A stretch of 64,000 nucleotides of DNA from positions 62,001 through 126,000 of the forward strand of contig CDRNVI010000047.1 of assembly GCA_977017575.1 (NCBI GenBank). Reading direction: 5' to 3'. Shown piece by piece: positions 13,600 through 49,425 of the stretch. Positions within the stretch are counted from its first letter, which is position 1, and each line of letters begins with the position of its first letter. The translations under genes were made by a program, and so were the position numbers. The DNA comes from Paramoeba atlantica (lineage: Eukaryota; Protista; Discosea). Under the pieces are notes generated by a model that saw only the letters and a program-made list of their open reading frames with translations, did not search any database and was not told where the DNA came from.

Positions 13600-13645
13600 A
13601 ATTATTTTCTTTATTTCATCTTTTCCAGGTACGCGGTTCTTTCTC

Positions 13646-27707: not shown

Positions 27708-27833
27708 TGAGAACTTGTGAAAGTAATCTGCGTATTCAATTTAGTTCAATACACATGAATATTTCAGCACGTAAACCATAATATTTTATTATATACCAAG
27801 GAAAGTGTTTATATCCACGTTTAAAAAGTTTTT

Positions 27834-28496
27834 ATGGTTGTGACCCGTTCGCAAGCGCGAGAAGCCGCGGATCGGGGGGAAGCCCTAACTCCCCCTAGCA
27901 CCCCGCGCACCTCATCGCCGAAATCCCAGGCCTCACGACCTACGAGACAGGTGGAGACGCCTCCAGTTAGTGCCCGCCGGAATTCTAATCTAGAAGAAAT
28001 CCGGGGCCCGCATCCACGTACGCCTCTTGGTGTTTTGGGAAGCGTTGCAGGGGCAGTAGGCAGTACAGTATGGAACGGATTTTTCAATAACCAAGAAACG
28101 CAGCCTCAAGCGTCTGACTTTCCTAACACTCAGGCTGCGGCAGCGGCGCAGAATTCCCTTGAGCGAATAGTACAGCAGCTCGCGACGCAGGTTTCCAGTT
28201 TATCGGCTCAAGTGGCCCGGATGCAGTTCTCCGGTTCCAGTTGCCAGCCTCCAAGCGTCCTACAGCCACAGCTTCCATCTCCGCACGCTACGCTTCCACA
28301 CGAACGTATTCTGGAGCAAAGCCACGTACCGCAGCAACAACGACAATTTCGGGAACATCGTCAGCCTGGGCCTTCAGATACTGCTTCGACTCGACCTACT
28401 CTTCCCAATAGCGAAATTGGAGACTCTAACTGCAAGATTAATATACGCAAGTTCAATATTAAACATTCACTTATCCCGCTTTTATTGGGCAATTAA
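27834..28496 (+). pseudogene. V3 gag N-terminal fragment
   Basis: ATG directly follows A1 (MVVTRSQ...), the same position as gag ATGs in other YR elements; runs into an RT/RH fragment. Confidence 0.55.
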
Positions 28497-29028
28497 GTTT
28501 GCAAGGCGCCAAATCGCCCGTGCGAATAAACAATTCATCTGCGATTCTTCTACTATTTTCTTACCGTCTTGCGTAATCGAACAATTCAGGACCTGGTTGC
28601 AACTTGTTGTCAGCAATCCGTGGACACTCTTCACCGCGCCTCGTCAAGGAAAACGTGCAACATTATACACGGACGCCTCGCTATCAGGATGGGGGGCAGT
28701 CCTGATGCTTCCCTCAGGAGCAGTATACGCTACAGGTGCCGCATGGCCTCGGAAAATGGAAATAAATGAAGGTGAAACCCAGGCTGTGGAACATGCATTG
28801 CGACAATTCCAGCAACATTGGAGCAACATTGCCGCCATTGATCTCCGCGTTGACAATACAAGCGCCGCAGCAGCACTGCGGAAAAAATGGAGCGACTCAG
28901 AATCAATTTCACGCGTTCTCGCTCGGATAATGAAATATGCGGAATATTACAAGTTAAAAATCACTCCATCTTACGTACGTTCAGCCGAAAACCTTGCCGA
29001 TAAATGGAGTCGGATATACGCAGCATAG
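28417..29028 (+). pseudogene. V3 RT C-terminus/RNase H fragment
   Basis: LYTDASLSGWG, VDNTSA, YVRSAENLADKWSR. Confidence 0.85.
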
Positions 29029-31508
29029 ACCAGCACAAGAAAGTATCAAAAGATGCAATAAACTAAATAACTCAAAAAATACATGAATCATACATACATG
29101 AATATACAAAAAAAAAAAAAAAAAAAAAAAAATACATCTCCCCCAACCCCCCACAGAACGGACGAGTTCTGTAACCATACGCGATCACAGACACTGAAAT
29201 GAGTTAGACTGTGGGTATTAGGGTGCCTTCGGTCCAGCCCAACAGCTGCATACACTATGATTACGATACTAGACTCAGCGATTGGACGAACTAGCGAATA
29301 GGGAGGCTATTGAAGTAGTTTTCCATTCGTTAGTACTGTGAGAAAATGAATTATAGTAGCGCTACTAAGTGACATATGTTGTTTTACTTTATACTTTATA
29401 TATTGATGTACAAACATATTCGATGGATTTGACGAAGGGTAGGATTACATTAATGTATTTTACACTTGATTTGAGTTTTTCAATCTTCACGAATACAATT
29501 TTATACGAATGCGCTGATTATGAGAACTTGTGAAAGTAATCTGCGTATTCAATTTAGTTCAATACACATGAATATTTCAGCACGTAAACCATAATATTTT
29601 ATTATATACCAAGGAAAGTGTTTATATCCACGTTTAAAAAGTTTTTCCCACCCACCCGCCCGGAGGCTATTGAAGTAGTTTTCCATTCGTTAGTACTGTG
29701 AGAAAATGAATTATAGTAGCGCTACTAAGTGACATATGTTGTTTTACTTTATACTTTATATATTGATGTACAAACATATTCGATGGATTTGACGAAGGGT
29801 AGGATTACATTAATGTATTTTACACTTGATTTGAGTTTTTCAATCTTCACGAATACAATTTTATACGAATGCGCTGATTATGAGAACTTGTGAAAGTAAT
29901 CTGCGTATTCAATTTAGTTCAATACACATGAATATTTCAGCACGTAAACCATAATATTTTATTATATACCAAGGAAAGTGTTTATATCCACGTTTAAAAA
30001 GTTTTTCCCACCCACCCGCCCGGAGGCTATTGAAGTAGTTTTCCATTCGTTAGTACTGTGAGAAAATGAATTATAGTAGCGCTACTAAGTGACATATGTT
30101 GTTTTACTTTATACTTTATATATTGATGTACAAACATATTCGATGGATTTGACGAAGGGTAGGATTACATTAATGTATTTTACACTTGATTTGAGTTTTT
30201 CAATCTTCACGAATACAATTTTATACGAATGCGCTGATTAAGAAGCTAATACCGGGGATCCAGTAACGTTTTCTCAGTACAAGACATCACGGGGTAGACT
30301 GACGAATGCCCCCATTTTTGTGAAGAAAAGCCGCTATATGTAATCGAAATTTGCTGTGTATAACTTTGCGCATTAATCTGGAACGCTTATTTTCAGGAGT
30401 GTTATGTCCTCTTGGTACATTTATTTATCAACGCGTTAATAATATTCTGGAGCATTTATGTATATTTCATTGCTAAATATCCGTACCCACCGAAAACACT
30501 GAGTGGGGTACGTAATATTGATAGTATAAGGTGGTTTATTTGGCAAGCAGAGAACAAGTTGGCGCTGAGTTGCTCTTCGGGCATATGACGCGGCAATGAA
30601 GGCAAGAACTTGCGTACTGCTTAACCCTTGGTACCGCGTTGAATATCGATGGTGAAATATTGAGCTGAAAATGGCTAATTGTAAGATTGTTCTGGTTTGC
30701 TTGTGCTCGTTTGTACACGTTTTCTCCTAATTGCAAAAGAGGATAGGTCTCCTACCTCCATTCGCATAATCCGCGGTTTTGGCCTATTCGTGATGTGGAT
30801 AGATGTTTCAGTGCGCTAAGGAGAGTGTACGTTGAAAGTTGCATGTGTATAGTCTTTTGTTATATTATTATTATTATTACGCGAAGTTCTCCTCCCAGCG
30901 ATCCCCCACACAAACTACTTGCCCGTAGTCGAGGTACAATATTGCTCCCCATCCCGTCGACGAAGCATCCGTGTATAAGGTGTGGCGGTGTGGAACTGTA
31001 TCCGGATGAGGAGGGGGTGTTACTGGATTATTTAAGCATATCTTATTCTTCCATTCCGTCAATGCCAAAGTTACACACGGAGGGAGCGGTACCCGTACGT
31101 TGTGTAGTTCAGGTTTGTTGTTGAGCGCATTGATACGTCTGCGAACCAATTTTAGGGGAAAATGGTAGTTTGTTATCGGTTCACCCAGAACTGAGGATGC
31201 GTGCACGAGTCGTCCCACTGCTGATTCAAGTTGCTCAAAAGTAGCATAACGAAATCTATCCTCTTTCATTCGCTGAATTATCTTTGGTCCCATTTTTACC
31301 TTACCCTCTTCTTAGAGTTTACGGAAAGAATTGCTTGAAGAAAATATTTATTCTTTGACCGTGGCCCTACGGGGCACATATACATATATGTACCTGATTT
31401 TGCCCCCTCCGGGGGGAACCATGTAATTATACTTTTAGCATACTATACTATACATTATTTTACTCTAGTGACTTATAACCTTTTTCCACTCGCAAAAGGA
31501 AAGTTGCG

Positions 31509-32738
31509 ATGACACAACTCGAACTTCACTCTACCCGAAATTTACGGTCATCGCGCAGTTCGTCTCCTGCAGTGCAACGGCCCGAGCCTACCGAGCCGTT
31601 GTCGCAGCAGGAGCTGAGTTTGGTGTGCACTGTTGCCCGAGAAAAACTGTTGAGTAGGGTGGCGGTCAATGTTAGGGCCAAATTTCGACGCAAGGACTCT
31701 TCTTCTGAGGCAATGCAAGTTGTGCAAGGTAAGATTCGAAAAGAAGGGATTGAATTATGGGGTGTCTGGGATAATGAACCCTCAAAAGAGTATCCATTTC
31801 CGCACGCCGACTTGTACTATTACGGCATTTCGATCATAGATGATCCTCCGGCGACTACGGGGCTAGAACAAGGGTCGACCGCCAATGGATTACGTACTAG
31901 TCAGAATTTCCCGGATGGTGGGGGGACAAACGAGGCTATTGTTAATGCTGATACTGTGGAAACTGGAATTCCTTTCGGACCGAGTGCCAATTTGGACCCT
32001 AACGGCCTGGATCCTTACGAGCCGATTACGTTCACCCCATGGATTAACGCCTTTGATGACGGGGGATTTCGCGTACGGGATTTGATGCGAGAACTGCGAG
32101 AAGCACCAGAATTTGGACTTCGCGTGAACAATAGTTGCGCAACTGCGCGATTATCTACCCCGAGCATCGTGGCTGGGTTCACTGCAATCGTAAAGAATCC
32201 GTAAAGATTACGAATTGGTTACGAATTTTCATTAACCGTGAACCAGTTTTTCACCGACCGGACTTTTCTGAAGCAACAAGAACGATTTTTTGAAAATGTT
32301 TTTTGCAAGTGGATTCTTTTTGCGCGGATGACTCAAGGTTGGGATCAGGGAGTTTACTTGGAAATGGGAAAAGCAATCATTCAGACGATGCGCGATGCAT
32401 ATTGGCGAGCCCGGCGCATTGACGTGGATCTCGTGCATCAAAAATTGCAAAAAGACGTCCGTCCGAATGATAAGTTCTACCATCTTGTCAGTGAGCAATT
32501 AGTTGATCGCCAGAAGCAGTATGCCCGCCAAGTGGGATTTTCCGGATCAGGGGTCTTCCACTCAAAGGCAAGTTTTCAAGGAAATGCGCGCCAGAATTTT
32601 GTGCCTCAACAGCGAGCTCCTTTATTGTGTTATGGTTGTCGTTCCCCTGACCACATGTGGAGAAATTGTCCTAAACGGTTTCAGCAGGGTTTTCGTTCGA
32701 GGGTGGCTGGCCCTGCACAAGGCAGCAAGAACTTCTGA
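31509..32738 (+). pseudogene. V2 gag interrupted by a 107-bp insertion (32130-32236)
   Basis: CYGCRSPDHMWRNC. TSD CGTGAAC; removal restores PEFGLRVNQFF. Confidence 0.88.
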
Positions 32739-32804
32739 AACGTTCCCACCCGAACGGCCAGTACTACAATAAATACCAACCGAAACCACAAACCTTTTAC
32801 GCAA

Positions 32805-33559
32805 GTGAACAGTACAGTAACAGTTTTCAAAAGAAAAACGATACAATTTATGCAAGTGACGAAGAAACGAAGGATGGAGAAGAATCACGTGGGTGTAGTG
32901 AGTGCAAAGAACTCAAGAGGAAGATATCTCAGATCTGGGACTTTATACGGCGGGACGCTAAGTTTGGAGCAGAAGGTGCCGGAAAGGCAGAAATTGATGA
33001 AGTTATTGCTGGGTGTGACAATAATGAGTCCCGAAATAAGGATGGCTCTCGCGGGATGGCATCCCGCGAAAAACATACGCTGCTGCTGTGCTGGAAGGGG
33101 GCAAGCCGTTGGTCCGAAACGGCAGCGTTGACCAGAGAACGGTTTTACGAAGTCGCGTCCAACAGAATTGTAATTTGGTGGGGAAGGCATACGAAGACGT
33201 CCCGCCTAAACCCATATCGCCCATCCATGTATACCGTCATCGAGGGACCGGGCACGGAGGAGCTCGCAAGGTATGTAGCGCAACTAAAGCCTCTCCAACC
33301 GATGTCATGGGCTACAACTTCACAAGTGGATGTCGAGATAAGGAAAATTCTCGGATTGGGTTTCGGGTCACATTCGTCAAAGCGCGGGGCGATCACTCTT
33401 CTTCTCGCGGAGGTGGCAAACGGCAATCTAAATTTAGAGGAGGTCCAGCATCTTGCAAAACATCAGAGCCTGGAATCTCTTCTGCGGTACAATGCCGATC
33501 CAGTGACGACTGCACTGGCACTGGGAACGCACAAAGCAACGCGCAAGTTGACCATCTGA
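32805..33559 (+). pseudogene. V2 tyrosine recombinase with a frameshifting internal deletion near 33060
   Basis: The N-part (MALAG) is joined to REKHTLLLCWKGASRW...HSSKRGA...LLRY; roughly 100 aa missing relative to V1. Confidence 0.85.
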
Positions 33560-35169
33560 TTACGGAAGACAATCTTTTTATCAAGTTTTTAGACGATATT
33601 CCTCAGGAGAAAGTTAAACACACGATTACTCGTACTCGACGAACATCGAAAGTGGCTCTTCCATCCGATTATAATCTTCCGTTGCACGTGAAATCCGGAA
33701 TACCGGACATGCAGGTTAATACTCTCAGACGAATGATGAACAGCGAAGCAGAACGCCGATTCGCAGAAACATGGGATACACTTGTTCGGCTACCGTCTAC
33801 ACCGGCGATAGAGCAGCGATTCAAATCCTTTTTACCCCCAGCTGATATATCCGCTTTGTTAGAGACAGGAGTTATTTCACGGGTTGGATCCGAGGTAGTA
33901 AAGGCCAGACCTTCGATGGAGTGGGTGATTCCATTCACGGTGGTGGAGCCAGCTGACGACGATTCGGAGCGACGTCGCTTTATAGCCTGGACCCGAGGCG
34001 ATAACAATAGAATTCGCGAAGAGTACAAGCCTGAGGTTCCCGTTTGCCATGCTGCATATTACCTTCATCGGGTTCGAGACCAATGTGCTATTAAGCGGGA
34101 TTTAGCGTGCGGGTTTTGGCAGGTGAAGATACCGGTGGAATCACGACAAAAATTTCGCTTCCGTGACGAGGAGGGCACATTATACGAAATGAATGTTATG
34201 CCCATGGGGCATCGTTGTGCCCCCGAGATAATGCACACCCTTACGGCCACCATTGGGGGTGACCCCCGATATTGTAATCGAGATGCGTCTTTTCCTGGAG
34301 GGGGACTGGATGTTTACATTGACGGTATTCGTTTTGCGGGCGAGGTGTCTAAGGTGAATGAGTACGCGCGCTTCATTGATCGTCGTGCTATCAATGTCAA
34401 TGCTAAGTTTAAGGATCATGGCGACCCGCCAATGGATGTTTATACCTTTAATGGGGTTACCTTTTTTCACCGAGATGGAAAGGTTAGTCTAGGGCCTAAG
34501 TTGACGCGACGATTGCAAAGTGATGATTTCTTAGCGGGAACCTATGGGTCTTTGGAGGCAGGCGTTGGGAGGTTAATTTTTGCATCGGCCATCATGGGAA
34601 TATGTATGCCAGAGTACCATTTGGAGTTGAAAATTGTTAGGCGCCGAATTTGTCGATTGAATCGCGAACCGAATTTACTTGATGATAAGGTCCCATTACC
34701 GACATCTGTCAGGATACGTTTGATGGCGTGGAGGGATAAATTGCTTTATCGTTCACCTGTTACACCGCCTCGCCACCCAGATACTGTTCCCCATCAACAT
34801 ACTTTGTTTACGGATGCGTCATCTGTAGGATGGGGGGCGGTCCTATATCTTGATTACGGACCCATGTTTTGCACTGGGGCGCAGTGGCCGGCGGATTTTA
34901 ATTACGAGGTTAATAGAGCTGAAGCGCGGGCAGTTCGACTCGCCTTTGAGAAATTTCAAATTCACTTTAAGAAAGATACGTGTGTGGACTTGTTCATTGA
35001 TAATACTTCGTGTGTGGCCGCTGTTAATAGAAAGGTTTCAAAATCAAATGGAATTACCGAGGAGCTTCGTCGTTTACTGCATTTTCTGAACAAGAACGGC
35101 TTAGCGGTTAAAGCAGAGTACGTACGATCATCCGAGAACGCAGCAGATCATTACAGTCGATATTTTTGA
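33088..35169 (+). CDS. V2 RT/RNase H
   Basis: KRDLACGFWQ, MPMGHRCAP, VYIDGI, FTDASSVGWG, IDNTS, ENAADHYSR. Confidence 0.88.
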   Translation: MLEGGKPLVRNGSVDQRTVLRSRVQQNCNLVGKAYEDVPPKPISPIHVYRHRGTGHGGARKVCSATKASPTDVMGYNFTSGCRDKENSRIGFRVTFVKARGDHSSSRGGGKRQSKFRGGPASCKTSEPGISSAVQCRSSDDCTGTGNAQSNAQVDHLITEDNLFIKFLDDIPQEKVKHTITRTRRTSKVALPSDYNLPLHVKSGIPDMQVNTLRRMMNSEAERRFAETWDTLVRLPSTPAIEQRFKSFLPPADISALLETGVISRVGSEVVKARPSMEWVIPFTVVEPADDDSERRRFIAWTRGDNNRIREEYKPEVPVCHAAYYLHRVRDQCAIKRDLACGFWQVKIPVESRQKFRFRDEEGTLYEMNVMPMGHRCAPEIMHTLTATIGGDPRYCNRDASFPGGGLDVYIDGIRFAGEVSKVNEYARFIDRRAINVNAKFKDHGDPPMDVYTFNGVTFFHRDGKVSLGPKLTRRLQSDDFLAGTYGSLEAGVGRLIFASAIMGICMPEYHLELKIVRRRICRLNREPNLLDDKVPLPTSVRIRLMAWRDKLLYRSPVTPPRHPDTVPHQHTLFTDASSVGWGAVLYLDYGPMFCTGAQWPADFNYEVNRAEARAVRLAFEKFQIHFKKDTCVDLFIDNTSCVAAVNRKVSKSNGITEELRRLLHFLNKNGLAVKAEYVRSSENAADHYSRYF

Positions 35170-36545
35170 AAGATGTTGTTTTCGAAGGATTAAATTACGC
35201 CATTTGTGAAAGCGCATATGATACGTATAGTAGATAAAAATAAGATATTGAGCGTTGAAAATTAAAAAAAAAAAAACGAAGACGAGGGAGACGTAAACTT
35301 CATGCAATCAATAACCAAGCAGAACGGACATGTGAGCGATTTTGATGTATATGAGGAATGAGTGAGTGAGGAGACGAGATGACGAGGGGGGGGCTCTCAG
35401 ATAGTAGGCAATCTGGGGTTTCTTCTTCTTGCCGTCACTAGCGTTTGGGTGATTTGAAGACTGGCGAGTGGGTGGTCCCCGCCGGGGAACTACCCATTCG
35501 CAAGAGAGAGAAAGTTTGAATATTGTTTTGTGGACGTCCATTTATTTTTGTTATCATTATAGTCAGGATAGAAAAGTTGAAAGACATGTAGTTATTTAGT
35601 TTTATTTACTTGATGAATATTATTTACTTAGGACAATTCTTTATATATTTTGTACAAAGATTTTATGATGAGCAATTCTTAGAGTTTACGGAAAGAATTG
35701 CTTGAAGAAAATATTTATTCTTTGACCGTGGCCCTACGGGGCACATATACATATATGTACCTGATTTTGCCCCCTCCGGGGGGAACCATGTAATTATACT
35801 TTTAGCATACTATACTATACATTATTTTACTCTAGTGACTTATAACCTTTTTCCACTCGCAAAAGGAAAGTTGCCCCACCCGCCATCCCCCAAACCACTC
35901 CCCGCCGGGGAACTACCCATTCGCAAGAGAGAGAAAGTTTGAATATTGTTTTGTGGACGTCCATTTATTTTTGTTATCATTATAGTCAGGATAGAAAAGT
36001 TGAAAGACATGTAGTTATTTAGTTTTATTTACTTGATGAATATTATTTACTTAGGACAATTCTTTATATATTTTGTACAAAGATTTTATGATGAGCAATT
36101 CGTAACAAAACTCCACTCCATTGAAAACATAGTTCGTCATAGGATCCGTGCCCTCGTCCTTGAAAGTTGCATTAACGCTGCCAGCTCGAGAGTCAATGAA
36201 TTGTTTATACGCGCTCGCCTCTTCTTCCCCTCCCGCGTACCTTACTCCATCAACATAGACGTCAGCTTTAAAGGCTCCATCATACGCGGAACTCTCGCTG
36301 CAATAATGCGGATCCCCGGCCAATGTTGATGTAATTGTGTGCATGATTTCCGGGGCACACCTATGCCCCATCTAATAGTTTACGGTAAGAAATTCAGGCG
36401 AGAGCTTATTACGTATAGTTTTACTTATCATTGAAAATGTGACTGTTGATTGATTGATTTCGTAAATTCATTAGAAAAGTTATTAACGGATGTGTATGTG
36501 CTTAGGGACTATTCAAATACAAAATCTACGCGTTTTCGAATTTTT

Positions 36546-37574
36546 ATGTCTGGAATCGTCCAAGCGGTTACTAGGGCAATTTCACGATCTAGAGCAAACA
36601 GCCCTGAGCCTCAAGCTCCGGAGCCCCAGGTTTCCCGACATAGCCGACGAGGCGGTACCCTCAACCCTGACCAGGTTGAAGCCCTCCTTGGAAACGATGT
36701 ACGTTTGCCGATGACGGATGATGCGAAATATGAATTTGCTCATAAGATGCGATTGCTTCTCTCTCGAGGTCATAAGGTTTGGATTCAGGCAGTATGGGGC
36801 CACCAGGAAGAGACCGAGCAATATAGAGTAATCGGCCAAGTGTACTTGAAAAATCGCAATGACCCTGACCACTCAGAATTAAAGGCGCGTTGGGATGATG
36901 AACAAGATATGGAGTACAGCTTCCCGTTCCCAGATATTGACTATTACTCATTGGCGATTGCTAAAGTACAAGCTCGAATGCCAGGCGGTGAGCGAGTTGA
37001 GCATCTTCCTTCTGTAGACCGTTTGACCATCTCTGATCCCAAGAACTTCTCTCCCATTGAACCAAAAACATGGGGTCCATGGATAGAATCCCCAGATGAG
37101 TTTAAGCCACGGGAACTGGTACGAGAGCTCCGCGATACGAAAGAATTCGGCGTACGGTTCAATCCTCCGCTTGTTCGGGAACGCTTATTCGAAATGCTCG
37201 TTCAGTGGATTTATGCGGCGCGCAAGTTGGCAGAATGGACAGACGAAAACTTCTACAACATAGCTAAGATCATTATAGAGGAGCTAAGAAACCATTATTG
37301 GGCCGCGGCCGGCGCTCCAGTTGAGAAAGTACAGCAGCGACTTCACCAGGTAAGGAACCCTGACGACACCTATGGACGTATTATGCTAGAGGAAACTTCA
37401 AAGCAGTCTCGTCGGGTACGTGCGACCCAGCCTCCGCTGTGCTTCAACTGTCGCATGCCTGGGCACTTGCGGGCCAATTGTCCACGTTTAAAGGATTTTC
37501 ACCGGGGGGTGGCGAGTGGCGGTACGAAGACACCTGTGAGCTACACTCGTGCCGAAAGACGAACGATCCACTAG
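36546..37574 (+). CDS. V4 Gag-like protein
   Basis: CFNCRMPGHLRANC; paralogue of V6 gag. Start placed at the first ATG. Confidence 0.85.
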   Translation: MSGIVQAVTRAISRSRANSPEPQAPEPQVSRHSRRGGTLNPDQVEALLGNDVRLPMTDDAKYEFAHKMRLLLSRGHKVWIQAVWGHQEETEQYRVIGQVYLKNRNDPDHSELKARWDDEQDMEYSFPFPDIDYYSLAIAKVQARMPGGERVEHLPSVDRLTISDPKNFSPIEPKTWGPWIESPDEFKPRELVRELRDTKEFGVRFNPPLVRERLFEMLVQWIYAARKLAEWTDENFYNIAKIIIEELRNHYWAAAGAPVEKVQQRLHQVRNPDDTYGRIMLEETSKQSRRVRATQPPLCFNCRMPGHLRANCPRLKDFHRGVASGGTKTPVSYTRAERRTIH

Positions 37575-37685
37575 GAAACGTTCCCCACCCCGAAAACAAC
37601 TACTCGTGCTCCTGCCTTATACAAAAGGCGGGAGAACTTACCAGGCTATTTTACACGTTCATCTCCAAGTTATGTATGGAACGGT

Positions 37686-38411
37686 GTGCGATATGTCAGC
37701 GCACTGCGGAATGCGCAGCAAATACTCGTGACTCAAACAATGAGTCAAACAAACACTACAGGTACGGGTCGAACTCAAAAGAGGATAAATCGCCCCGCAG
37801 GACACCAAACGGACCTATCAGGCCCCTTAGCGAAAACAAGAAGGTTGAACTTGACGTGCCAACTCCTCCGTATGGATCCAAACGACGCGCTGGCGCCGGC
37901 TCTTCAGAGGGCAGTATATCCGATGTGGACGGAAAAGACGTGGACCACAAGGGAACGTATTTGGATGCGACTAAACGAGTTCTGCGAGAAAAGAAGCATA
38001 CGTCCAACTGCGCTGCACGCAATATTGTTTCTGGATTCCCTAAGCGTTGCGGTAACGACGCGGCTAGCCTACACAAGAAGTCTACACACCATTTACACAT
38101 GCATAAACGAGGACAACACCCCTCTCAAGCTATACTCGAAGGCACTACAAGCGCAGGGGGGGCTGGAGCCACAACGTCAGATGGAGCCACTGACCCCGTA
38201 TCTGCTACGGAAATTGTGCAGCAGGATAACAGTCTCACAGACCATGGCCGTGCTGCTGTGCTGGAAAGCGGCGGCGCGGTGGACAGAGGTCGCCGAACTC
38301 TGCAGGGAGAAGTTTCTCAAGGTATCCTCAACCGAGATAGTGATTTATTGGGGTCGGGCGACGAAGTCAACACGCCTAAGGGTTGGAGGCTGCGAGTGTT
38401 GGGGGGCTTAG
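37686..38411 (+). pseudogene. V4 tyrosine recombinase, C-terminally truncated
   Basis: WKAAARWTE is present; the HxxR and Y motifs are missing. Confidence 0.82.
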
Positions 38412-39275
38412 CCCCTTCACATAGTATTTACTTGTTTTATTATTGATTTTAGATTCGGTACCAAGTTATTATCTTATTAGCGTGCGCATTATAGATCGTA
38501 ATATACATGTATTCCTGCTCTATAAAAATATTGTATGTTCAGTGAAAAGAGACAGAAGTGTGTATTTCTGGAATTAGATACTTTATATTGTTTCTGCTTT
38601 ATTGAATGTTCGGACGCCTCGCTGCGGATTTCGGCATAACTTTTAGTTCATATAGGTCTCCATTGCTTCCTCGAAATCTAAACTTTGCCCGTGCCTGCTC
38701 CGGCACACTCACCTGATAAAAACCACATGATAAGTCGCGCTTCAGCCCGTACGGCTCTTTCGCTCGATGCAAATAGAAAGCAGCGTGCTTTAAGGGAACG
38801 TAAGGTATGTAATCTTCTTTGAGTCTCTTGTTGTCCTCTCGAGTCCACGCTATAAATCTGCGGCGCTTTTCAACTCCAGTTTCATCCGCGGGTTCAATAA
38901 CCGTAAAGGGTATCACCCACTGATTGGTGGGGCGTTTGTTTTCTTCGTCCGGTGATACTTTACTAATAATATTTGCATCTTCCAACTCTTTGATATCTTT
39001 TTCCGGTAAAGTAGGTGCAAATTTTGGCGATTCATCTTCATTTTTTTCCAACTTAAAGAGGGTGTTTAGCGTCTCACAAAATCGGGCAGATGCTGCCCCG
39101 TTCATCATATTCCGAAATTCGTTCATATTCAACACTTTCACTTTCTTCACATGTAATGGTAGTTTGAGATCATCATGCATAGCGAGCTTTGTGGTTCGTC
39201 GGGTACGCACAATGGTGTAGCGGCTCTTCTCTTGCGGCATATCGCGCAAGTACTGGCGAAATAAATTTTCGGAGC

Positions 39276-40346
39276 TCACAACGTTTTCAGATGCATTGTC
39301 GCTTTCCCAGTTCCAAGAGCGAGCGCGGTAGTGACGGGATCTGAATTGTACCGGAGGAGGGATTCTATCTGTTGGTGTTTTGCCAGATTCTTCAGTTCGT
39401 CGATTGTGACCTTCCCATTTGCGACCTGTTTGAACAGCTCCGTGACCGCCCCTCTCTTGGCTGAATGTGTCCCAAAAGCTTGACCGAGCGTTTGCTTGAT
39501 ATTTCGATCCATCTGTCGTACGTTCGTTCGGCACATTGTGTTCCACGACTTGAGCGTATGAACGTATTGGGCAAGCTCCGGAGTGCCTTCCCCAAGAATT
39601 ACTGTGTACATTGATGGTCGCCACTGGTTGCAACGCGACGCCTTTGTTCCTCTGCCCCAGGCGATTACTATTCTTTGCGAGGTCACCTGTACGAATCTTT
39701 CTGTCGTTAAATTTGCTGTCTCGGTCCAGCGGGAGGCAGCTTTCCAGCACAGTAGCATTGTCATGCTTTCCGATTGAGTCAGATTCTTTCGTAACTTGTT
39801 CAAGAGGTATGGTGTTAGTGGTTCCATTTGGTGTTTCGGCTCCTCCGCACCCTCGGCTTGTAGCGCTTTGCAGAAAAACTTTATTGGTACAGTGCTCTCT
39901 CCGATTAGGTTGAACAGTGCCATTATTGCTCGAGCGTACGTTATTTTCGTTTGCGGAGATATCGGGAGAAGCTGAATGAAAGCGACTGCATGTATTGGAC
40001 TTAGATGTATCTTTTTCCACGTGCAAAAGGTCCTGAACCTTTCCCAAAGCCTTGCCCTTGAATCCCACGTTGATGTGCTCCACATTGAGGCCATCCCATC
40101 CAAGGCCACTCTGACTTCGTGAGTGATCGTACTCACCCCCATCAACAGGCTTAGCAGGTTTCTCCTGCCTGATTGCGCCGACTCCAAACTTAACGTTCCC
40201 TGATATAATTTTCCAGATGAAATTAATCTCCCGTCGTAGCTCCGCGCATTGACTACATTCTGTGCTGTCGTCTTTCTTCGTTTGCTGTGCGGAGCCTCGA
40301 TCTGCGATGAAATTCTTTTGTATACTATGGACTTCTGTGGTACCAT
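39276..40346 (-). CDS. V5 tyrosine recombinase
   Basis: WKAASRWTE, HSAKRGA, LAKH, LLRY. Confidence 0.9.
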   Translation of the reverse strand: MVPQKSIVYKRISSQIEAPHSKRRKTTAQNVVNARSYDGRLISSGKLYQGTLSLESAQSGRRNLLSLLMGVSTITHEVRVALDGMASMWSTSTWDSRARLWERFRTFCTWKKIHLSPIHAVAFIQLLPISPQTKITYARAIMALFNLIGESTVPIKFFCKALQAEGAEEPKHQMEPLTPYLLNKLRKNLTQSESMTMLLCWKAASRWTETANLTTERFVQVTSQRIVIAWGRGTKASRCNQWRPSMYTVILGEGTPELAQYVHTLKSWNTMCRTNVRQMDRNIKQTLGQAFGTHSAKRGAVTELFKQVANGKVTIDELKNLAKHQQIESLLRYNSDPVTTALALGTGKATMHLKTL

Positions 40347-40424
40347 TTGATGCGAAATTTTCGTTCCTACGTCGATTCTCCGGTATTCTATATTTGGAAC
40401 ACTGGCGATTAAAGGACGGGCGTT

Positions 40425-41513
40425 TCATAACGTCTTGGCGCTGTGCGCGCTGCCAGCCGCCCTCTGGCGAAAATCCGGTGGTGATGATCTTTTGTACGGA
40501 CAATCCTTCAAGAAATGAACAGGAGATCGGCAATTGTAACACACTGGGCGCCCCACATTGGAAGAAGCATAACTCGGATACATTTGTCTCGGCTGACCAA
40601 AAGAACGATAACTTCGATTCACATAATTTGATCCGGAGTAGCGCGCACGAAATTTCTCTCGATCGGATAACTGATCCGACACGTGTTGATAAAATTTGTC
40701 GTGTGATCTGTCCTCTTTATCCAACTTCTGGTGGACTGCCTCTACATCTACCTTGCACGCTCGCCAATATGAGTCTCGAAGACTCTGAACGATTGCTTTA
40801 CCCAACTCCAAGAAAGGACCTTCAGACCATCCTGGGGTATCCCGCGCCAACATAATCCATTTCCCTAGCAAATTGTCGAAGTTTCGCTCTTGCTGTTTCT
40901 GAAATGAACGATCCTGAAAGAATTGATTGAGTCGCAAACCATATTCCGGTGCCTCCTTCAGTTCCCGAATCAAATCACGAATGCGAAATCCCTCATCATT
41001 ACGGGCATCGATCCACGCTGGCCAAGTAATAGGTTCATAAGGGTCTAACTTTAACGAATTCATTGATGCGAATGATTGCAGATTTGGAGGCAGGGGCCGT
41101 CCGCCGTCCAATGGCTGCGTCTCCGGAAGATTATTCGAGGACTGTGGTTCGGCTTCTTCCAGGTCAATACGAAAGTAATTCAGATCATTGTGAGGAAAGG
41201 GGTACTCACGCGTGGGATCGTCCTCCCAGACCGCCCACATTTCCATGCCTTCACGTCGAATCTTGCCATGCGAAGTACGTTTTGCCGAAGTCGACGCGTC
41301 TTTTCGTTGCCATACCGCTTTAATGTGCAGAACCGGTGCCACATCCTTCGCCAGCAAAAGCTTTTCACACACTCTTGATTTCATTATGCTCATTTCCGAG
41401 CTTCCCATCGGATTCTCTGGCACGATCGATGGACTACGCGTTTCGCGTGGTGATAGAGTCTCTCGCGGCGACAACGCACACGCGAATCGCCGCGATTGAA
41501 GTCGTGAAGTCAC
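40425..41513 (-). CDS. V5 Gag-like protein, N-terminus continuous with the 177-bp satellite
   Basis: CYNCRSPVHFLKDC; homologous to V1/V2 gag. The start codon is uncertain. Confidence 0.85.
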   Translation of the reverse strand: MTSRLQSRRFACALSPRETLSPRETRSPSIVPENPMGSSEMSIMKSRVCEKLLLAKDVAPVLHIKAVWQRKDASTSAKRTSHGKIRREGMEMWAVWEDDPTREYPFPHNDLNYFRIDLEEAEPQSSNNLPETQPLDGGRPLPPNLQSFASMNSLKLDPYEPITWPAWIDARNDEGFRIRDLIRELKEAPEYGLRLNQFFQDRSFQKQQERNFDNLLGKWIMLARDTPGWSEGPFLELGKAIVQSLRDSYWRACKVDVEAVHQKLDKEDRSHDKFYQHVSDQLSDREKFRARYSGSNYVNRSYRSFGQPRQMYPSYASSNVGRPVCYNCRSPVHFLKDCPYKRSSPPDFRQRAAGSAHSAKTL

Positions 41514-41718: not shown

Positions 41719-42055
41719 GAAATCCAGGTCGGGCTGCTCATAAAACATCTAGTAGAACTAGTATATAAAAATATATGGAAGCAATAATAAGAAATTTGAA
41801 GACTGCTGATTTCTCAATGATCTTACGAAGATATATCTTTCCTGTAGTGTATTTATGGAAATAAACCCAAGAGACTAAGTGAGATCGTCATAACCTATCA
41901 TAATCAATGCTAAAAGAGTACCAAATAAACTAATAACGTTGTGAACGGGAATGCCCGTCCGCGCAACCCGCAGCCAACCAACCCGATCACTAGTCACATT
42001 TAACACTACCCGAGCACTCGTGATATTCCTTGGGGAACTTCTCCTAAGTCCCAGG

Positions 42056-43819
42056 CTAAAATTTCCTGCTAATCGGGTCTGCTGGATTCTCTGACGAGGC
42101 AATGTAACGTGCCTGAATGCATATCCCTTTCCTTTTTGCTTCCTCTAAAACCATGCGCAATTGACGTGCAATATTGTCCGACTTAGAAGTTTTCCTATTC
42201 AGTGCCTCTTTACATGAAGTGTTGTCCACAAAAAGATCCAGGCACGTTCCGCTTTCAAAATGCTCACCGAATTCTTCAAGAGCCAACCTTACAGCCGTAG
42301 CTTCAGCATTGTTTACTTCATACGTTGTTCCGGCTTCCCATGGCTTGCCTGTTATCAAAACCTCTCCTGTATCCAGATACAGAATCCCTCCCCACCCTTT
42401 GCGAGAAGCATCTGTGTAAAGACGATGTTTGTGAGGAACGAAATCTGGATGAAGTGGAGCTTTAATCGGAGTATTTAATACTACCTCATCCCTCCATTGT
42501 GCTAAAATAATACGTGTTTTTCGTGGAAGGTCAACAGACTTATTACCTATCCACGGACATCGATTCAACAAATTAATTCGTCGCTGAACAATCTTGACAG
42601 CGAAATGAAATCGCGGAATGACTATACCAAGCACAGCAGATGAGTACAGAAGGCGCCCCACCGCCGCCTCCAGATCTTTGAAGCTTAACGAGTAAAATCT
42701 GTCATTCTGCAACTTACGCACCACACGTGGTCCCAGGCTGACCTTGTGATTGACGTGATCGTAATGAACTCCATTAAATACATAGTGCTGTGTCGGCTCA
42801 TGGCCTTTCTCCTTGAATTTTCCTCCCATCTCATCGCACCGTTTATCCACAAAGCGTGCGTACTCCTGCGCTTGTTCCACAGTTCCCGAAAACCGAACTC
42901 CATCAACGTACACATCCATAGCTCCTCGTGTAAAGGCAGATTTAGCGCTACACACTGTGATAAGTCCCCCAAGGGCGGAAGTTATCGTATGCATGATTTC
43001 TGGGGCACACCTACATGTATGTCCCATCGGAAGAACGTTCATTTCATAAGTACGGCCTTTTGATGAAAAGCGAAATTTACAACGCGCAGCTAGAGGAAGT
43101 GGTACTTGATAGAATCCACAGCTTAAATCTTTTTTCACTCCTATAGCGTCGTCAACTCGATGCAAATATTTACTAGGATGAAGCAGGGGAACATCAGGGA
43201 CATAATCTTTCAACCGGTCATTATCCCAGCGCGACCAAGATATAAATCTCCTCCGATCGTGACCAAATTCGTCTTGTTCCACTACAGTAAACGGGATGAT
43301 AAATTGAGCTGCAGGACGACGCTCTAATTCATCAGAAGAAACTTGAGAAATGATACCGGCCTTCAAAAGAAGCGCAATATCGGACACAGGTAGAGAATTG
43401 AGTCCTTTCGGCTCTTTTTCAGCTACTTCAGGAACGTGTAGAAGTTCGTCCATAACATTTTGAAAGCGCATCTTGGTTGGCAAGTCCATGCATCCTTTCA
43501 CTACCTTTAGATCCATTAGAGGTGTATTCATTTTCACGTGTAATGGTATCTCAAAATCTTTTGCCGTGGCCAACTTAGACGAGCGCCGCGCGCAAGTAAT
43601 CGAGTGCCGTTTCAAGTACGGTACCTCAGAGTAAACTTGCTCCAACAGTTCAGCTGTCATGCCGGGAGTCTCGCCGATACACGTTGCGTTCCGAGCGCTC
43701 TGGCCGTCGTTACTTGGTTTGCATTGTATCTTAACAGACTTTCGACATTTAAATGCTTGGTCATGTTCTGAACTTCTGATATCGTTAGATTCCCTTGAGC
43801 CACTTCCTGGAACAGCCAC
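42056..43819 (-). CDS. V6 RT/RNase H
   Basis: KKDLSCGFYQ, LPMGH, VYVDGV, YTDASRKGWG, VDNTS, ENPADPISR. Confidence 0.88.
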   Translation of the reverse strand: MAVPGSGSRESNDIRSSEHDQAFKCRKSVKIQCKPSNDGQSARNATCIGETPGMTAELLEQVYSEVPYLKRHSITCARRSSKLATAKDFEIPLHVKMNTPLMDLKVVKGCMDLPTKMRFQNVMDELLHVPEVAEKEPKGLNSLPVSDIALLLKAGIISQVSSDELERRPAAQFIIPFTVVEQDEFGHDRRRFISWSRWDNDRLKDYVPDVPLLHPSKYLHRVDDAIGVKKDLSCGFYQVPLPLAARCKFRFSSKGRTYEMNVLPMGHTCRCAPEIMHTITSALGGLITVCSAKSAFTRGAMDVYVDGVRFSGTVEQAQEYARFVDKRCDEMGGKFKEKGHEPTQHYVFNGVHYDHVNHKVSLGPRVVRKLQNDRFYSLSFKDLEAAVGRLLYSSAVLGIVIPRFHFAVKIVQRRINLLNRCPWIGNKSVDLPRKTRIILAQWRDEVVLNTPIKAPLHPDFVPHKHRLYTDASRKGWGGILYLDTGEVLITGKPWEAGTTYEVNNAEATAVRLALEEFGEHFESGTCLDLFVDNTSCKEALNRKTSKSDNIARQLRMVLEEAKRKGICIQARYIASSENPADPISRKF

Positions 43820-44151
43820 GTGATTGCACCCCTTTTTATTGAATGTGAGAACTTGTGAAAGTAATCTGCGTATTCAATTTAGTTCAATACACATGAATAT
43901 TTCAGCACGTAAAGCATAATATTTTATTATATACCAAGGAAAGTGTTTATATCCACGTTTAAAAAGTTTTTGGCTATTGAATATTGAAAAATAGTTTCCC
44001 ATTCGTTAGTACTGTGAGAAAATGAATTATAGTAGCGCTACTAAGTGACATATGTTGTTTTACTTTATACTTTATATATTGATATACAAACATATTCGAT
44101 GGATTTGACGAAGGGTAGGATTACATTAATGTATTTTACACTTGATTTGAG

Positions 44152-45540
44152 GGGGAGGGGGGGCACTCGATGAATATTCATCGAACGGACAGTGCGTTCG
44201 ATGAATGGATTGCAGTACGACCCGTTCGATGAATCATTCATCGAACAGGATGTCCTGTTCGATGAATGAAAATGCAATTTTTTTTTGTAAAAAAAAAGCT
44301 CGTTTCGGTCTGCATCATGCTCCTGGCTGCTACCTTGATCCGTAAGACAAAAACAAATCCGAAACGTTATCAAAAAGCGGAAGGATTCTTAAAACTATTG
44401 CCACTTAAGTTTACAAAGATAAAATCATAACTTACAAATACACAAACCTGCGGAAGTGGCAGACACAGGTCCTCAGTGCGCGACCCAAAAAATATTGGGT
44501 TGGGGGTACGTTCGTTGTACTCAACGAACTGCCGGATTTTCGTTGAGTACTCAACGAACGGAAATTTACGGTGCAAGTCAAGGACTTTTGCATATGTCAA
44601 GGACTTTTGTGGAACACCCAAGAATTTTTTTTGAATTTCATTTTCCGTGCGTTCAGTATCCTACACTTCACTATATACGTTGACAACGCCTGCGTAGCGA
44701 AAACTACGAAATTCAGTGAGCTTCGCAAATTGCTTCCCACTAACGACGCACAGGGGAATCCTACGCGGGGTACGGCTCAGGCCCGCTCACGCGGGCCCTC
44801 GCCGTTTCGCGGCCGCGCGCACCCCCGCTCACGCGGGGGCCCCCGCGCGGCCAAAATGGGTACTAAAATTTGTTATCAAGGTAGTTGGGCTTCGCAAATT
44901 GCTTCCCACGAATCTAGAGAGAAGCACACGTACAATAATCTTTAACGATAAAGATACAGTTTCTGTACCTTGTTGATTATTTACTTTTTTTACCTTTCAT
45001 GGGAGTGTTCACACGCTCCAAAGCAAAAGAATCAGGAGTAGCTCCTGAGATTTTGCCGCTCCCTCCTGCCCGATGGAAAAAGAAGGCCGTGACGCCAACT
45101 CATCCGCCCGCCGTGCTAATATCCACCACCTCCGCATGGAGCGCGCGGGTCGCCAAAAAATATAATTATGTCCCAGGGCTACGCTCACAGTTGGGCCTTG
45201 CTCGCAAAGGGGGGCTTTTGCCTCCAGAAGCCGGCTACGCTCACAGTTGGGCCTTGCTCGCAGACGGGGGCCTTGCTTGCACACTTGGGCTTCGCTGACA
45301 GTTGGGCCTTGCCTCCAGACATGTAATCGAGATGGTAATGTTCAAATTCCCCCCAAAAAAAATCGAGACGAAAAATTCGTGCAGCAGTGCCCGTTGGATG
45401 AATGATTCATCGAACGCACTGCCCGTTCGATGAATATTCATCGAACGGGACGCCTGGTCATCGAACGGGACGCCGTTCAATGAATATTCATCGAACGCAC
45501 GGTGCGTTCGATGAATTTTCATCGAATGCCCCCCCTGGCC
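44152..45540. mobile_element. MITE1: non-autonomous DNA transposon, imperfect TIRs of about 55 bp starting GG, 8-bp TSD GATTTGAG
   Basis: TSD at 44144-44151 and 45541-45548; subterminal TTCGATGAATATTCATCGAA palindromes. Confidence 0.85.
44941..45150 (+). pseudogene. SL-capped 5' fragment of an R1-like retrotransposon inside MITE1
   Basis: SL-like 35-mer, then ATG 44999 MGVFTRSKAKESGVAPEILPLPP vs R1 MGMFTRSRAKERGLAPVVQPLPP. The 3' limit is approximate. Confidence 0.75.
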
Positions 45541-45690
45541 GATTTGAGTTTTTCAATCTTCACGAATACAATTTTATACGAATGCGCTGATTACGTCCCA
45601 TAGCCATTTCCCAAGATTTCGCGTATTTTGCTGTCCATTCGAGATACCTCCGTGTAGCACATTCTGCACCCTTGGGGTATTCGTCTCATG

Positions 45691-46489
45691 TTGTTGTTGT
45701 TGTTGAACTGGGCCGTTTGACTCCGAAGAGTTATGACCCCTCGACTCTCCAAGTGGGAAGGTCCGATAAATCGGTCGAAGTCAGCCACAGCAAGATGTGA
45801 CTGGCGCTCCACTTGGAGAGGAGATTCTTCCACTGAAGGAATCCAATAAATAAAAAAGCTCCAGGGTAGGAGGGGTTCGCTACTCCCCAGCGTGGTTTAA
45901 CAAGTTGTTGTTGTTGTTGAACAACAACAAGTTTAACAAGTTAATCCACGACCCTGCCTTAAAGTTTTTATGCGGATGCTACCCTAGTTTCTTGACGTCT
46001 TGTTTTGTTGACGCCGGGTAGATCCACACCATGGGCGGTGGAGAGCGCGGCGGGAGAGCGGCGGGTGGACAGCGGGGGAGAGCGCGGGCAGGTGGCGCTG
46101 CGGGTGGCGCGGCGGGTGGCGCGGCGGGTGGCGCGGCGGGTGGGGAGAGCGGAGGGTGGCGCGGCCGGGAGCGCGGAGGGTGGGGAGAGCGGCGGGTGGC
46201 GCGGAGGATGTGGAGAGCGGCGGGTGACACGGCCGGGGGCGCGGCTGGTGGCGCGGAGGGTGGGGAGAACGGCGGGAGCGCGGCGGGGAGCGCAGTGGCA
46301 AGCGTAGCGGGTGGCGCGCCCGGGAGAGCGGGGGGTGTGGAGAGCGGCGGGTGGCGCGGAGGGTGTGGAGAGCGGCGGGTGACACGGCCGGCGGCCCGGC
46401 GGGAGCGCGGCGGGAAGCACGGTGGGTGGTCAGAGGGAGGAGTGAAGGGGGTCATGGGGGAAAAGACAAAATAGAAAACAACAAGGTAC
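45691..46489 (-). mobile_element. Retro-inserted transcript (partial SL, GC-rich repeats, (CAA)n tail) with 12-bp TSD
   Basis: TSD ATTCGTCTCATG at 45679-45690 and 46490-46501; the 5' end reads GTACCTTGTTG. Confidence 0.8.
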
Positions 46490-47304
46490 ATTCGTCTCAT
46501 GTAGTCCGCTAACTCGGCAGTTCCGGGGCCCGTCACAATCGCGTACATATACGGTCGAAAGGGGTTCATTCTCGTTGACTTCGTTGCTCTTCCCCAGTAA
46601 ATCACCACCTCTTCGGGAGTAACCTTTAATATCTGTTCTGTCGAGAGTTCCGCCGTTTCCGTCCAACGAGCTGCCGTTTTCCAGCACGAAAGAGCCGTCA
46701 TGCTCTCGGATGTTGTTAGACTTCTTCTCAACCGTCTTAGAAGGACGGGAGTAATTGCAAGCATTTGTCTCTGTGGTTCTAGTCCGCCTTGCGCTTGCAA
46801 CGCCTTTCCGTAGATCTTCAATGGGGTTGCTTCGGCTCCCATGAGCGTAATAAGAGTCTGCAGATTCCTTGCGTAGGCCAGTCGTGTCGACGTCGCCAGT
46901 TTCAATGAGTCTACGAACCTGACCGCACTGAGCGCGTTTTGAGATAGGTGACGTTGTGCACAAAAGTCTTGCATCCGGAGCCACAGCCTCTCCCTCGTTC
47001 CCCACGTACTTGTTGCCCACATGGGCTCGATTGCTTTCCGAACGATCTGACCGTGCGGATCCTTTGGGTTGAGTCCGAGTATATCGCATAAAAGGTTTGA
47101 TCTCGTTTGTTCCCTTGCCAAAGGCGCTGCCGTTCCGAACACGTGTTTTCCCCTCCGAATTTGAAGTCTCGGTAAATCCGTTCTTTCCACTGCACTTGCA
47201 CTTTCCATTCGCAAGAATAAAGATGAATTCGGAGAAGAGCCTGGTAAGTTCACCCGCCGTATCCTCAACGGTCGGGCACGAGCATTTGTCGGGGTGGGGC
47301 ACAA
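46490..47304 (-). pseudogene. V6 tyrosine recombinase, N-terminal part
   Basis: WKTAARWTE; continues after the insertions to HSIKRGA and LLRY. Confidence 0.85.
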
Positions 47305-47307
47305 ATC

Positions 47308-48130
47308 CTATTGTGTGCGTCTTACGCCCGTCTGGGCGCCGCTCGCCACCCCCCCACGAAAAACCGGTTGTGGTGCCCCGCTTTGCAAACGAGGACATTG
47401 AGCGCGAACGTGACCAGTTTGGCGACAATTGTAGCATACACGCGCTCCTTTCACAACCCGTGGTAGGCGATTCACACGCAGCTGTTCCTCTGTCATGATT
47501 TGTCCGTAACGATCCTGAGGATCATCATCCTTGTGAAGGCGCTGCTGAACACGTTCTACAGGAGCTCCCGCTGCTGCCCAATAATGATTTCGAAGCTCTT
47601 CGATGAGCATTTCCGCGATACAAATGAATTGCTCATCTTTCCATCCTTCCATCACTCTAGCTGCATAAATCCACTTTACCAATATGGCAAACAAGCGCTC
47701 ACGATGTGCCGGAGGATTGAAGCGAACTCCCAGCTCCGGAGTTTCACGCAGCTCACGAACAAGCTCTCGCGGCTTAAATTCATCCAGAGAGTCGATCCAA
47801 GCCGCCCACGTCAAAGGAACAAATGAAGAAAACTTAGATGGGTCACGAACTTGCATTCCTTCCAGCGCAGCTAGCTGCTCATCACGCGGCTGTCCACCTG
47901 GCATCGCCTTGTAAACTTTAACGATAGAAAGTGCGAAATAGTCAATCAGCGGATGGGGGAACTCATACTCATTGTCGGGATCATCCTCCCACAGGGCCCA
48001 AATATCAAACTCATCACTGTTTTTCGCCTTCTTACGGTATACTTTACCCACAACAGTTTGATTCACATCTTCACCGCGCTCGGCCCATGTTGCCTGTATT
48101 TGCACCTTAAATCCCTTCTCCAGCAAAGTC
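47308..48130 (-). pseudogene. V6 gag, main part
   Basis: CYNCRQTGHVRAQC; paralogue of V4 gag. Confidence 0.85.
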
Positions 48131-48571
48131 GTTTACGGATTGAAATTCAGGAGGGATTATATTTGAATAGGGTTTGTTAATAATTATGTACGTGTATGAA
48201 CTGTATGCATTTTCGCGTGAAATTGATTTTATTCTTATGTGACTGTATTAGTGACTATTCTATTTGGGTAAAGCTTCACTCGTTTTCGCACCCGCCCACC
48301 AGCCCCCAGCCATTTGGCTGCGAGCTGAGGGGATGGTTGGCTGCGAGCTGAGGGGATGGGTCTTCCCGTTCACAAGTTACTTTGATTATGGAATTCCGGA
48401 ATATTGTTTCAAACTGTGCTGATGTGATGAGACTTGTACTCTTTGAGAAACTGATCTACATGTATGACGATTTCAATGAATTTTCGTTATGTTCTATTTC
48501 CAGTTATATTTCTTCTTAATATATCTTTTCATATTCTTTGTTAATGTACGTGAAAGCACGAACTGGATTTC
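48131..48571 (+). mobile_element. V7: solo A-linker-B unit of the V4/V6 family, inserted in V6 gag
   Basis: Starts GTTTACGGATTGAAATTCAGG and ends CTGGATTTC; the host rejoins as KKVRTLLEKG. Confidence 0.8.
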
Positions 48572-48624
48572 CTAACTTTCTTGGAGAACTGTTGTTTTTC
48601 ATTCTCAGTCATGGGATCAACTCC

Positions 48625-49120: not shown

Positions 49121-49425
49121 TCAACTCCATTTCCGTCTCGCAACAAATTCGCAACTTGGTCCGCACTTAGAACTTGTTCGATACGTGACTCAATCCCTTC
49201 AGGGGCACCAGGAGTGCCAAACAACTGGTGCGACATGAAAAACAAAAACTAGTGGTAACGTTCGGATGAAAATAGTCTCTAAAATAGTCAAATAATTGTG
49301 TATATGTCAAATTGTTCATGATTAGAAAAAACGGTGATATAATTCGAATAATATTCCTAAGCCCAAAACTACAACAGTATGGAGCATAATGTTTGCCCTC
49401 CTGAATTTCAAATCGTAAACTTATA

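Follow-up and report, generated by a model that had tools for sequence, protein, structure and literature searches.

A covarying palindrome at the end junction of VIPER-like tyrosine recombinase retrotransposons, a candidate folded att site

The VIPER and SIRE elements of kinetoplastids are assigned to the DIRS order (VIPER-like superfamily). They carry their genes in the order gag, tyrosine recombinase (YR) and RT/RH with overlapping YR and RT frames, have repeats arranged as A1..B1 A2 B2, and cause no target duplication (PMC6681497; PMC12278014). Ngaro elements share this repeat layout and occur together with solo AB repeats, while the YR comes last in their ORF order; the accessible text of PMC8547959 describes no junction structure for them. 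DIRS1-like elements are bordered by inverted terminal repeats with left and right extensions and form a 3-bp circular junction (PMC3266345). The integration of DIRS-order elements has seen little testing; according to the accessible part of PMC7192593, the YR specificity had not been investigated experimentally and no primer is known. Outside the retroelements, classical YR sites have spacers of 6-8 bp and undergo two exchanges; the integron attC site and CTXphi use a folded single strand, one exchange and replicative resolution (PMC4792948).

The window analyzed here, a stretch of 64,000 nucleotides, consists of a nest of retroelements in its first 49 kb, after which a 177-bp satellite follows. 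Translation and Pfam analysis revealed six elements with gag-like, recombinase and RT/RH frames. They lie among non-LTR elements which, from their domain content, we take to be CRE-like and INGI-like. The genome that hosts them probably belongs to a kinetoplastid. The recombinase elements, the solo units and one isolated end are located as follows.

9410..18488, plus strand: V1 element; left end 9410-9433 (spacer and right arm), right-end arm 18481-18488.
10745..11839, plus strand: V1 tyrosine recombinase ORF, with R, K, HxxR, H and Y motifs by alignment; the V1 gag (9605-10744) and the V1 RT/RH ORF (10654-13443, overlapping the YR) are both open.
27708..30240, plus strand: V3 element, A1..B1 A2 B2 A3 B3; internally deleted, RH part retained.
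30878..41513, minus strand: V5 element, into which V2 and V4 were inserted; neither of its own ends is present in the window.
31312..36101, plus strand: V2 element; A1 31312-31507, B1 35476-35678, A2 35679-35874, a 24-nt linker, B2 35899-36101.
36373..38632, plus strand: V4 element, with gag, a truncated YR and the B end; its insertion site is the RT gene of V5.
41719..49425, minus strand: V6 element; left end 49425 (right arm 49409-49400), right-end arm 41728-41719.
43846..45593, plus strand: solo A-linker-B unit of the V3 family (SIRE-like), with a MITE-like insert at 44156-45536.
48131..48571, plus strand: solo A-linker-B unit of a V6-like family, within the gag of V6; at its left end the first 5 bases of the spacer are missing.
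8460..8499, minus strand: isolated right end of a V1 copy, 40 nt; it abuts a CRE-like element and ends at the arm.

The order gag-like, YR, RT/RH, with the YR overlapping RT/RH, was found in V1, V2, V5 and V6 and in two elements from outside the window (L001 and L004, see below), i.e., the order of VIPER and SIRE and not that of Ngaro. Split direct repeats of the type A1..B1 A2 B2 are present in V2, in V3 with one extra period, and in L004, as in VIPER/SIRE and Ngaro, and the solo A-B units of the window resemble SIRE. V1, V4 and V6 contain no internal copy of the junction in the window. V1 is located in an 18-bp array and carries a CRE-like insertion in its 3' part. V2, which holds gag, a YR with an internal deletion and RT/RH between A1 and B1, was inserted into the RT gene of V5, and V3 into the ORF of an INGI-like LINE. 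V6 lies within the 177-bp satellite and is broken up by two solo units and MITE-like inserts.

Alignment revealed a complete catalytic set (R, K, HxxR, H, Y) in the recombinase. The structure model of the V1 YR (pLDDT 85) matches Cre and phage integrases at E-values of 1e-6 to 1e-4; its best matches are Cre-type duplex recombinases, and the integron integrase structure ranks 36th. Pfam YR models gave no match to the window proteins at E 0.01, and PF00589 was precomputed for 2 of 22 homologues. The Pfam matches for RT/RH and zinc knuckle remain under the curated cut-offs, save V3 RVT_3 and the V6 zinc knuckle. Among V1, V2, V5 and V6 the RT/RH identity amounts to 48-62%, and to V3 it is 33-37%. 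No named VIPER protein was among the matches of the searches; the resemblance to the motifs and termini of T. cruzi VIPER was recognized by eye. Judged by their sequence, the elements of the window are VIPER-like YR retrotransposons whose direct repeats are split; what is studied here is the B|A junction of their ends. The first-pass annotation had already taken the signal for the end (circle) junction of YR retrotransposons, a reading that is supported.

Three copies of the junction occur in situ in the window.

29512..29545, plus strand: V3 B1|A2 junction; mini-palindrome AC-TT-GT at 29526-29531.
29872..29905, plus strand: V3 B2|A3 junction, one 360-bp period past the first.
35671..35702, plus strand: V2 B1|A2 junction; crossover 35678|35679, mini-palindrome GT-TT-AC at 35684-35689.

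In V2, the arms AGCAATTC (35671-35678) and GAATTGCT (35695-35702) enclose a spacer of 16 nt (35679-35694), exactly where the first-pass annotation had placed them. Its V3 junction at 29512-29545 was likewise recovered, with 8 of 9 pairs and one T.T apposition, and the second V3 copy shows the same 8 of 9 pairs and one T.T. The arms given for V1, V4 and V6 also stand, each pair being assembled from the two ends of the element; a V4-type junction is present in situ in one sequencing run (loose end 36371, run X3, among the matches listed). For a test of the spacing, the left arm was anchored on the element end, spacers of 0-45 nt were tried and 9 pairs were scored. A spacing of 16 was the unique best in all five window families (8, 8, 8, 6 and 8 of 9 pairs; runner-up 5). 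The background was estimated by 148,020 position-spacer tests on the plus strand of positions 1-49400, in which arms with at least 7 of 8 pairs occurred 53 times and the central mini-palindrome (tip) alone 433 times. Both together were found solely at the three in-situ junctions on the plus strand and nowhere on the minus strand; when the arms were relaxed to 6 of 8 pairs plus tip, four unrelated places, counted over both strands, also passed. The five families had been described as divergent, but they represent only about three lineages (V1/V2, V4/V6 and V3): V1 and V2 have 33 nt over the junction in common at 91% identity, and V4 and V6 share the right arm. The description that they have little terminal sequence in common holds for the alignment scores outside the signal, which are at background, but not for V1 and V2 nor, weakly, for V1 and V3, which are alike in A. 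The observation is real and extends beyond what had been described before.

A metagenome scan yielded four loci (L001 to L004) from 297 candidates, whose proteins are 26-35% identical to those of the window (RT/RH of L001 and L004, 26-30%). L004 is a complete element with three open frames and repeats of 99-100% identity; its arms measure 8 bp and its spacer 17 nt. In L001 the arms are 9 bp long and the spacer 15 nt. Of L002 only the left end was recognized, which is L004-like, and L003 was excluded since it has no recognizable end. Among candidate stretches from viral contigs (8, 50 and 88), none was confirmed as a relative, and the same was true for all 14 candidates from prokaryote genomes. 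The published T. cruzi VIPER copies (PMC6681497), for which the junction layout was fixed in advance of inspection, show by eye 8-bp arms with one T.G apposition and a 16-nt spacer, i.e., the geometry of the window, and the junction is found in situ at seven places, some of which possibly belong to the same copy. For TATE, the supplement sequences searched contained two left ends only. The match in L001, L004 and T. cruzi indicates that, within the range of elements tested, VIPER-like elements generally carry the signal, with a spacer of 15-17 nt. The spacer of exactly 16 nt proposed earlier thus applies to all five window families and to T. cruzi, but it is no rule, given the 17 nt of L004 and the 15 nt of L001. 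The inverted arms and the nested palindrome of the junction are not mentioned in the accessible main text of PMC6681497, and the accessible part of PMC12278014 has no passage on the junction. The junction palindrome is apparently undescribed in the literature searched; the original VIPER, SIRE and Ngaro papers could mention it.

The lineages that carry the pattern are few. The window holds about three, and three more come from elsewhere, where L001, L004 and T. cruzi contribute one family each. This would fit a functionless pattern that arose by chance or was merely inherited. Such a reading is effectively refuted by the anchored spacing test and the background counts, by the out-of-sample fit in T. 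cruzi, and by a geometry that was kept while the sequence changed between elements with RT/RH only 26-37% identical (V3, L001 and L004 versus the others). The junction is a real, conserved cis-signal of an already known element family.

That the spacer is conserved had escaped the first-pass annotation. Far from being neutral, the spacer contains a covarying core, which is centred on TT or TTT and flanked by two or three co-changing pairs. These tip pairs are GT/AC in V1, V2, V4, V6 and L004, AC/GT in V3 and GGC/GCC in L001; in T. cruzi they read GC/GT by eye. The mini-palindrome shares the symmetry axis set by the outer arms, so the whole junction forms one imperfect palindrome of 32-36 nt. 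Beside the tip, an A.G apposition is found in 6 of 7 families and also in T. cruzi. Variation in spacing is confined to the centre (TT versus TTT) or to the mismatched flank, which is loop-like. Between position -10 and the tip, the sense strand shows 11 G.T versus 2 A.C appositions, counted over seven families of which related ones enter twice and are not independent. The sense RNA is predicted to fold at -8.9 to -11.9 kcal/mol with z-scores of -2.4 to -4.6 in all seven families. The predicted sense fold is stabler than the antisense fold in 6 of 7 families as RNA and, with smaller margins, in 6 of 7 as DNA, L001 being the exception; the V4 junction as DNA is predicted to be as weakly folded as its shuffled versions (z-scores of -0.3 for the sense and +0.1 for the antisense strand). 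Within a context of 220-480 nt, pairing of the sense-strand arms is predicted with a mean probability of 0.78-1.0 for all four in-situ junctions, both as RNA and as DNA, and on the antisense strand the predicted arm pairing of V3 is lost in the larger context. Rfam gave no match at the gathering score in the window between 27500 and 49500. The earlier suggestion was an unusual recombination site or a hairpin in single-stranded DNA or RNA; a fixed 16-nt spacer is not supported. The spacer of 15-17 nt, the covarying tip on the axis of the arms and the non-Watson-Crick pairs, mostly G.T on the sense strand, make the evidence lean to the hairpin.

The positions at which insertions begin and end were mapped with the help of contigs from four sequencing runs of one study, which provided empty sites and loose ends (24 of 177 loose ends listed). 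Among the matches listed, an empty site was found for V2 in three of the four runs (3 shared bases), for V4 in three of the four runs (2 shared bases) and for V3 in runs X1 and X2 (no shared base); both V3 sites in the window have 0 bases in common with the target. When the flanks of the two solo units are joined, the reading frames of their hosts are recovered, and with the flanks of V1 and V6 it is the satellite register that is regained, as seen by eye; for the solo unit at 43846, the flanks rejoin to the HxxKRG motif in the YR frame of V6 with no base gained or lost. At none of the insertions mapped by empty sites, restored frames or register was a target base duplicated or deleted; VIPER and SIRE likewise cause no target duplication.

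According to the first-pass annotation, the element boundary always falls at the border of arm and spacer. In the window this is true for all 8 right ends and for 6 of 7 left ends, and the exception is the 48131 solo unit, which starts 5 nt later. Among at least four distinct V3 right ends in reads, one is exact and one has a 1-base match explained by a repeat target; two others match the first 3 and 4 spacer bases, and no empty site was seen for either. All of the V3 left flanks in reads, at least three, fit the border. Taken together, the first base of the spacer is also the first base of the element in 12 of 13 left ends (6 of 7 in the window, 3 of 3 for L001, L002 and L004, 3 of 3 in reads; among the matches listed), and in T. 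cruzi 7 of 7 right flanks start with T, the first base of the spacer (PMC6681497). The border floats over 2-3 shared bases (TTC/TC) in V1, V2, V4 and the 48131 solo unit, with 3 bases in V2 and 2 in V4. Both ends of an element map to one point, 7.5-8.5 nt from the axis, and among the mapped insertions there was none in which the two ends lay at the opposite edge of the spacer. The crossover at the inner edge of the left arm is thus borne out in most cases. From the ends in the window, in reads and in T. cruzi, we conclude that the crossover lies mostly at the border, that likeness to the target on either side is weak and variable, and that no homology is required. A requirement for 2-3 bases of target homology was ruled out, since V3 shares 0 bases with its target and V6 and L004 have mismatches directly at the border. 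A constant G or C in the target before the cut was ruled out as well: in three additional V3 flanks the last base is T, T and A, respectively.

In DIRS1-like elements, the joined ends form a stem and the junction lies beside an unpaired extension, so that the arms of 8-10 bp with a left extension of 15-17 nt found here look like a miniature of this arrangement (PMC3266345). The DIRS1-like ITRs, however, measure 66-316 bp and are accompanied by an internal complementary region, whereas the repeats of the window elements are direct and only 8-10 bp are inverted; neither long ITRs nor the internal complementary region were found. Integration of DIRS1-like elements is modelled via a 3-bp target identity (PMC3266345), compared with an identity of 0-3 bases in the window. 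With loxP and dif, the junction has in common the inverted arms, the crossover at the inner edge of the arm and a Cre-like fold of the recombinase. Their spacers are 6-8 bp long, in contrast to 15-17 here, where one crossover position was found and the target showed neither a partner site nor homology to the spacer. The spacing and the two crossover positions of a duplex core site are thus absent, and likeness to the target is limited to 0-3 shared bases.

A duplex att site on a double-stranded circle has to be weighed nevertheless. Two YR monomers would sit on arms 15-17 bp apart, one of them would cleave, and replication or repair would resolve the product, the inner palindrome being a secondary contact or an easily melted zone. 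Measured against the length of loxP, the total of 32-36 bp corresponds to about two Cre-like footprints, in agreement with the Cre-like YR model, and the 48131 solo unit begins at a loxP-like cut position. A circular double-stranded intermediate is also the standard model (PMC3266345; PMC7192593). But loxP-like crossovers are expected in the central 8 bp, not at the first spacer base where 12 of the 13 left ends lie (among the matches listed), and a duplex site gives no reason for the strand bias of G.T over A.C, for the covarying tip or for the one-base change in the length of the centre. We consider it unlikely. A loxP-like 13+8+13 arrangement as the main route was ruled out, as the ends are not in the central 8 bp.

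The single point at the base of the outer stem, a spacer twice too long for a second homology-free exchange and the fold-like constraints favour a folded att site with one exchange. The junction is a candidate for such a site, a predicted hairpin or cruciform that would be cut by the element's own recombinase on one strand only; we regard this as quite possible, if short of probable. A YR monomer would bind the outer stem and cut the sense strand at the border of stem and loop, and the cut strand would be swapped with a loosely chosen duplex target. As in integron attC and CTXphi, the second strand would then be completed by replication or repair. During reverse transcription, the junction may be templated by the internal copy, B1|A2, as in the published model for the DIRS order, and the solo A-B units and the A..B elements without internal junction may result from recombination between repeats. 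Two symmetric exchanges would sometimes give ends at the far edge, and only one crossover point was found; the spacing of 15-17 nt is roughly double that of duplex YR sites, 6-8 bp (PMC4792948), and insertion can do without target homology. In DIRS-1, single-stranded cDNA is produced and can complete retrotransposition (PMC7192593), which may, by analogy, be taken as a precedent for single-stranded intermediates.

The YR acting on a folded strand at attC and at the CTXphi attP is the analogue of the proposed pathway, with the difference that here the fold is predicted and the host is a eukaryotic retroelement. A foldable imperfect palindrome with the crossover at the edge of the box is found here in predicted folds and covariation. 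Where attC has two integrase boxes in the stem, the window junction offers one stem of 8-10 bp and a short tip, and a second recombinase box was not found in the folded stem. Past the crossover, the stem is too short for a second YR box, with about five imperfect appositions plus 2-3 pairs. Also at odds with a folded site are the Cre-type matches of the YR model, the V4 DNA fold at shuffle level, the left end that is 5 nt short and the two right ends with 3-4 spacer bases, and covariation of the arms is equally expected of a symmetric duplex binding site. As the sense strand folds better but first-strand cDNA is antisense, the reading has to postulate either a cruciform or DNA of the sense strand. 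The small share of probability that we assigned to none of the main readings includes an intermediate like that of hairpin telomeres, in which both strands would be cut 16 apart and refolded; the product ends would be the same.

Another reading, which we find somewhat unlikely, places the function in the RNA. A predicted RNA hairpin at the internal B1|A2 may act as a start, stop or switch signal for reverse transcription, or in packaging; RT would set the end at the base of the stem and the YR would transfer ready-made ends. The hepadnavirus epsilon signal would be a functional parallel. Of the predicted folds, that of the sense RNA varies least among the families and extends to V4, which fails as DNA; an RNA signal best accounts for the G.T bias of the sense strand, and the tips resemble ordinary RNA loops. 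Furthermore, the VIPER RNase H was grouped with those of hepadnaviruses (PMC6681497), and the primer of DIRS-1 is unknown (PMC7192593). A second pairing is predicted between the C-rich A2-B2 linker and a G-rich stretch before B1 (35436-35475 with 35875-35898 in V2; 4216-4255 with 4461-4480 in L004). It ranks top in these two elements, exceeding all 389 (V2) and 408 (L004) background windows, but it fails in V3, where 38 of 139 background windows are as good or better. With this predicted pairing, B1-A2 would form a loop, and template switching may be guided in this way. An RNA signal alone, however, does not explain why the crossover coincides with the position at which a YR classically cleaves, namely the inner edge of an inverted arm, and the ends of V1, V4 and V6 are precise despite the lack of an internal junction, which may have been lost later.

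Extended beyond the window, the folded-site reading would mean that VIPER-like and perhaps all split-repeat YR retrotransposons integrate without target homology via a folded single-stranded att site that their own recombinase cuts once, as a eukaryotic retroelement counterpart of integrons and CTXphi; this generalization is possible, but we hold it loosely. A signal of 32-36 nt whose geometry is kept from the genome of the window to T. cruzi represents a defined substrate with natural compensatory variants, so a few assays could decide between duplex DNA, folded DNA and an RNA signal. The elements themselves belong to a known family, and it is the junction that offers a testable handle on the insertion of recombinase-using retrotransposons. 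For annotation, it fixes the ends of VIPER and SIRE. If a folded site is true, a eukaryotic integrase that acts on a single strand, leaves no scar and is independent of homology would be an interesting tool. The arms of 8-10 bp would then be miniature DIRS1 inverted repeats, and both kinds of termini known in the DIRS order would come under one scheme.

Several further features were observed in the window. All seven complete YR insertions (27708-49425) are located within mobile elements or satellites, four of them within VIPER-like elements, which recalls the self-insertion of DIRS-1 (PMC7192593). Reads of runs X1 and X2 join the A end of V4 to the start of B with a 25-nt linker (36540-38388, among the matches listed), so the V4 family also occurs as an A-linker-B unit elsewhere. 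The MITE-like inserts (44156-45536, 44510-44562 and 48625-49120) have termini formed by repeated palindromes around GAATATTC; no transposase was found in them. Near-perfect arrays of the 18-bp unit (6209-6948, 8507-9413, 18486-18986 and 22328-23588) are interleaved with CRE-like elements, with V1 inside, and a related 18-bp repeat is the target of V3 in reads; it could be a targeted or a telomere-like repeat. The 177-bp satellite (49427-64000 and 41472-41722) comprises 82 copies with about 95% identity and 52% GC and is possibly centromeric. V6 lies in its edge, and the satellite replaces the 5' end of V5. V1 and V2 have a short GC-rich palindrome within repeat A in common (about 9485-9500, 31361-31376 and 35728-35743), and in both a AAGGAAAG motif is located directly before the gag start.
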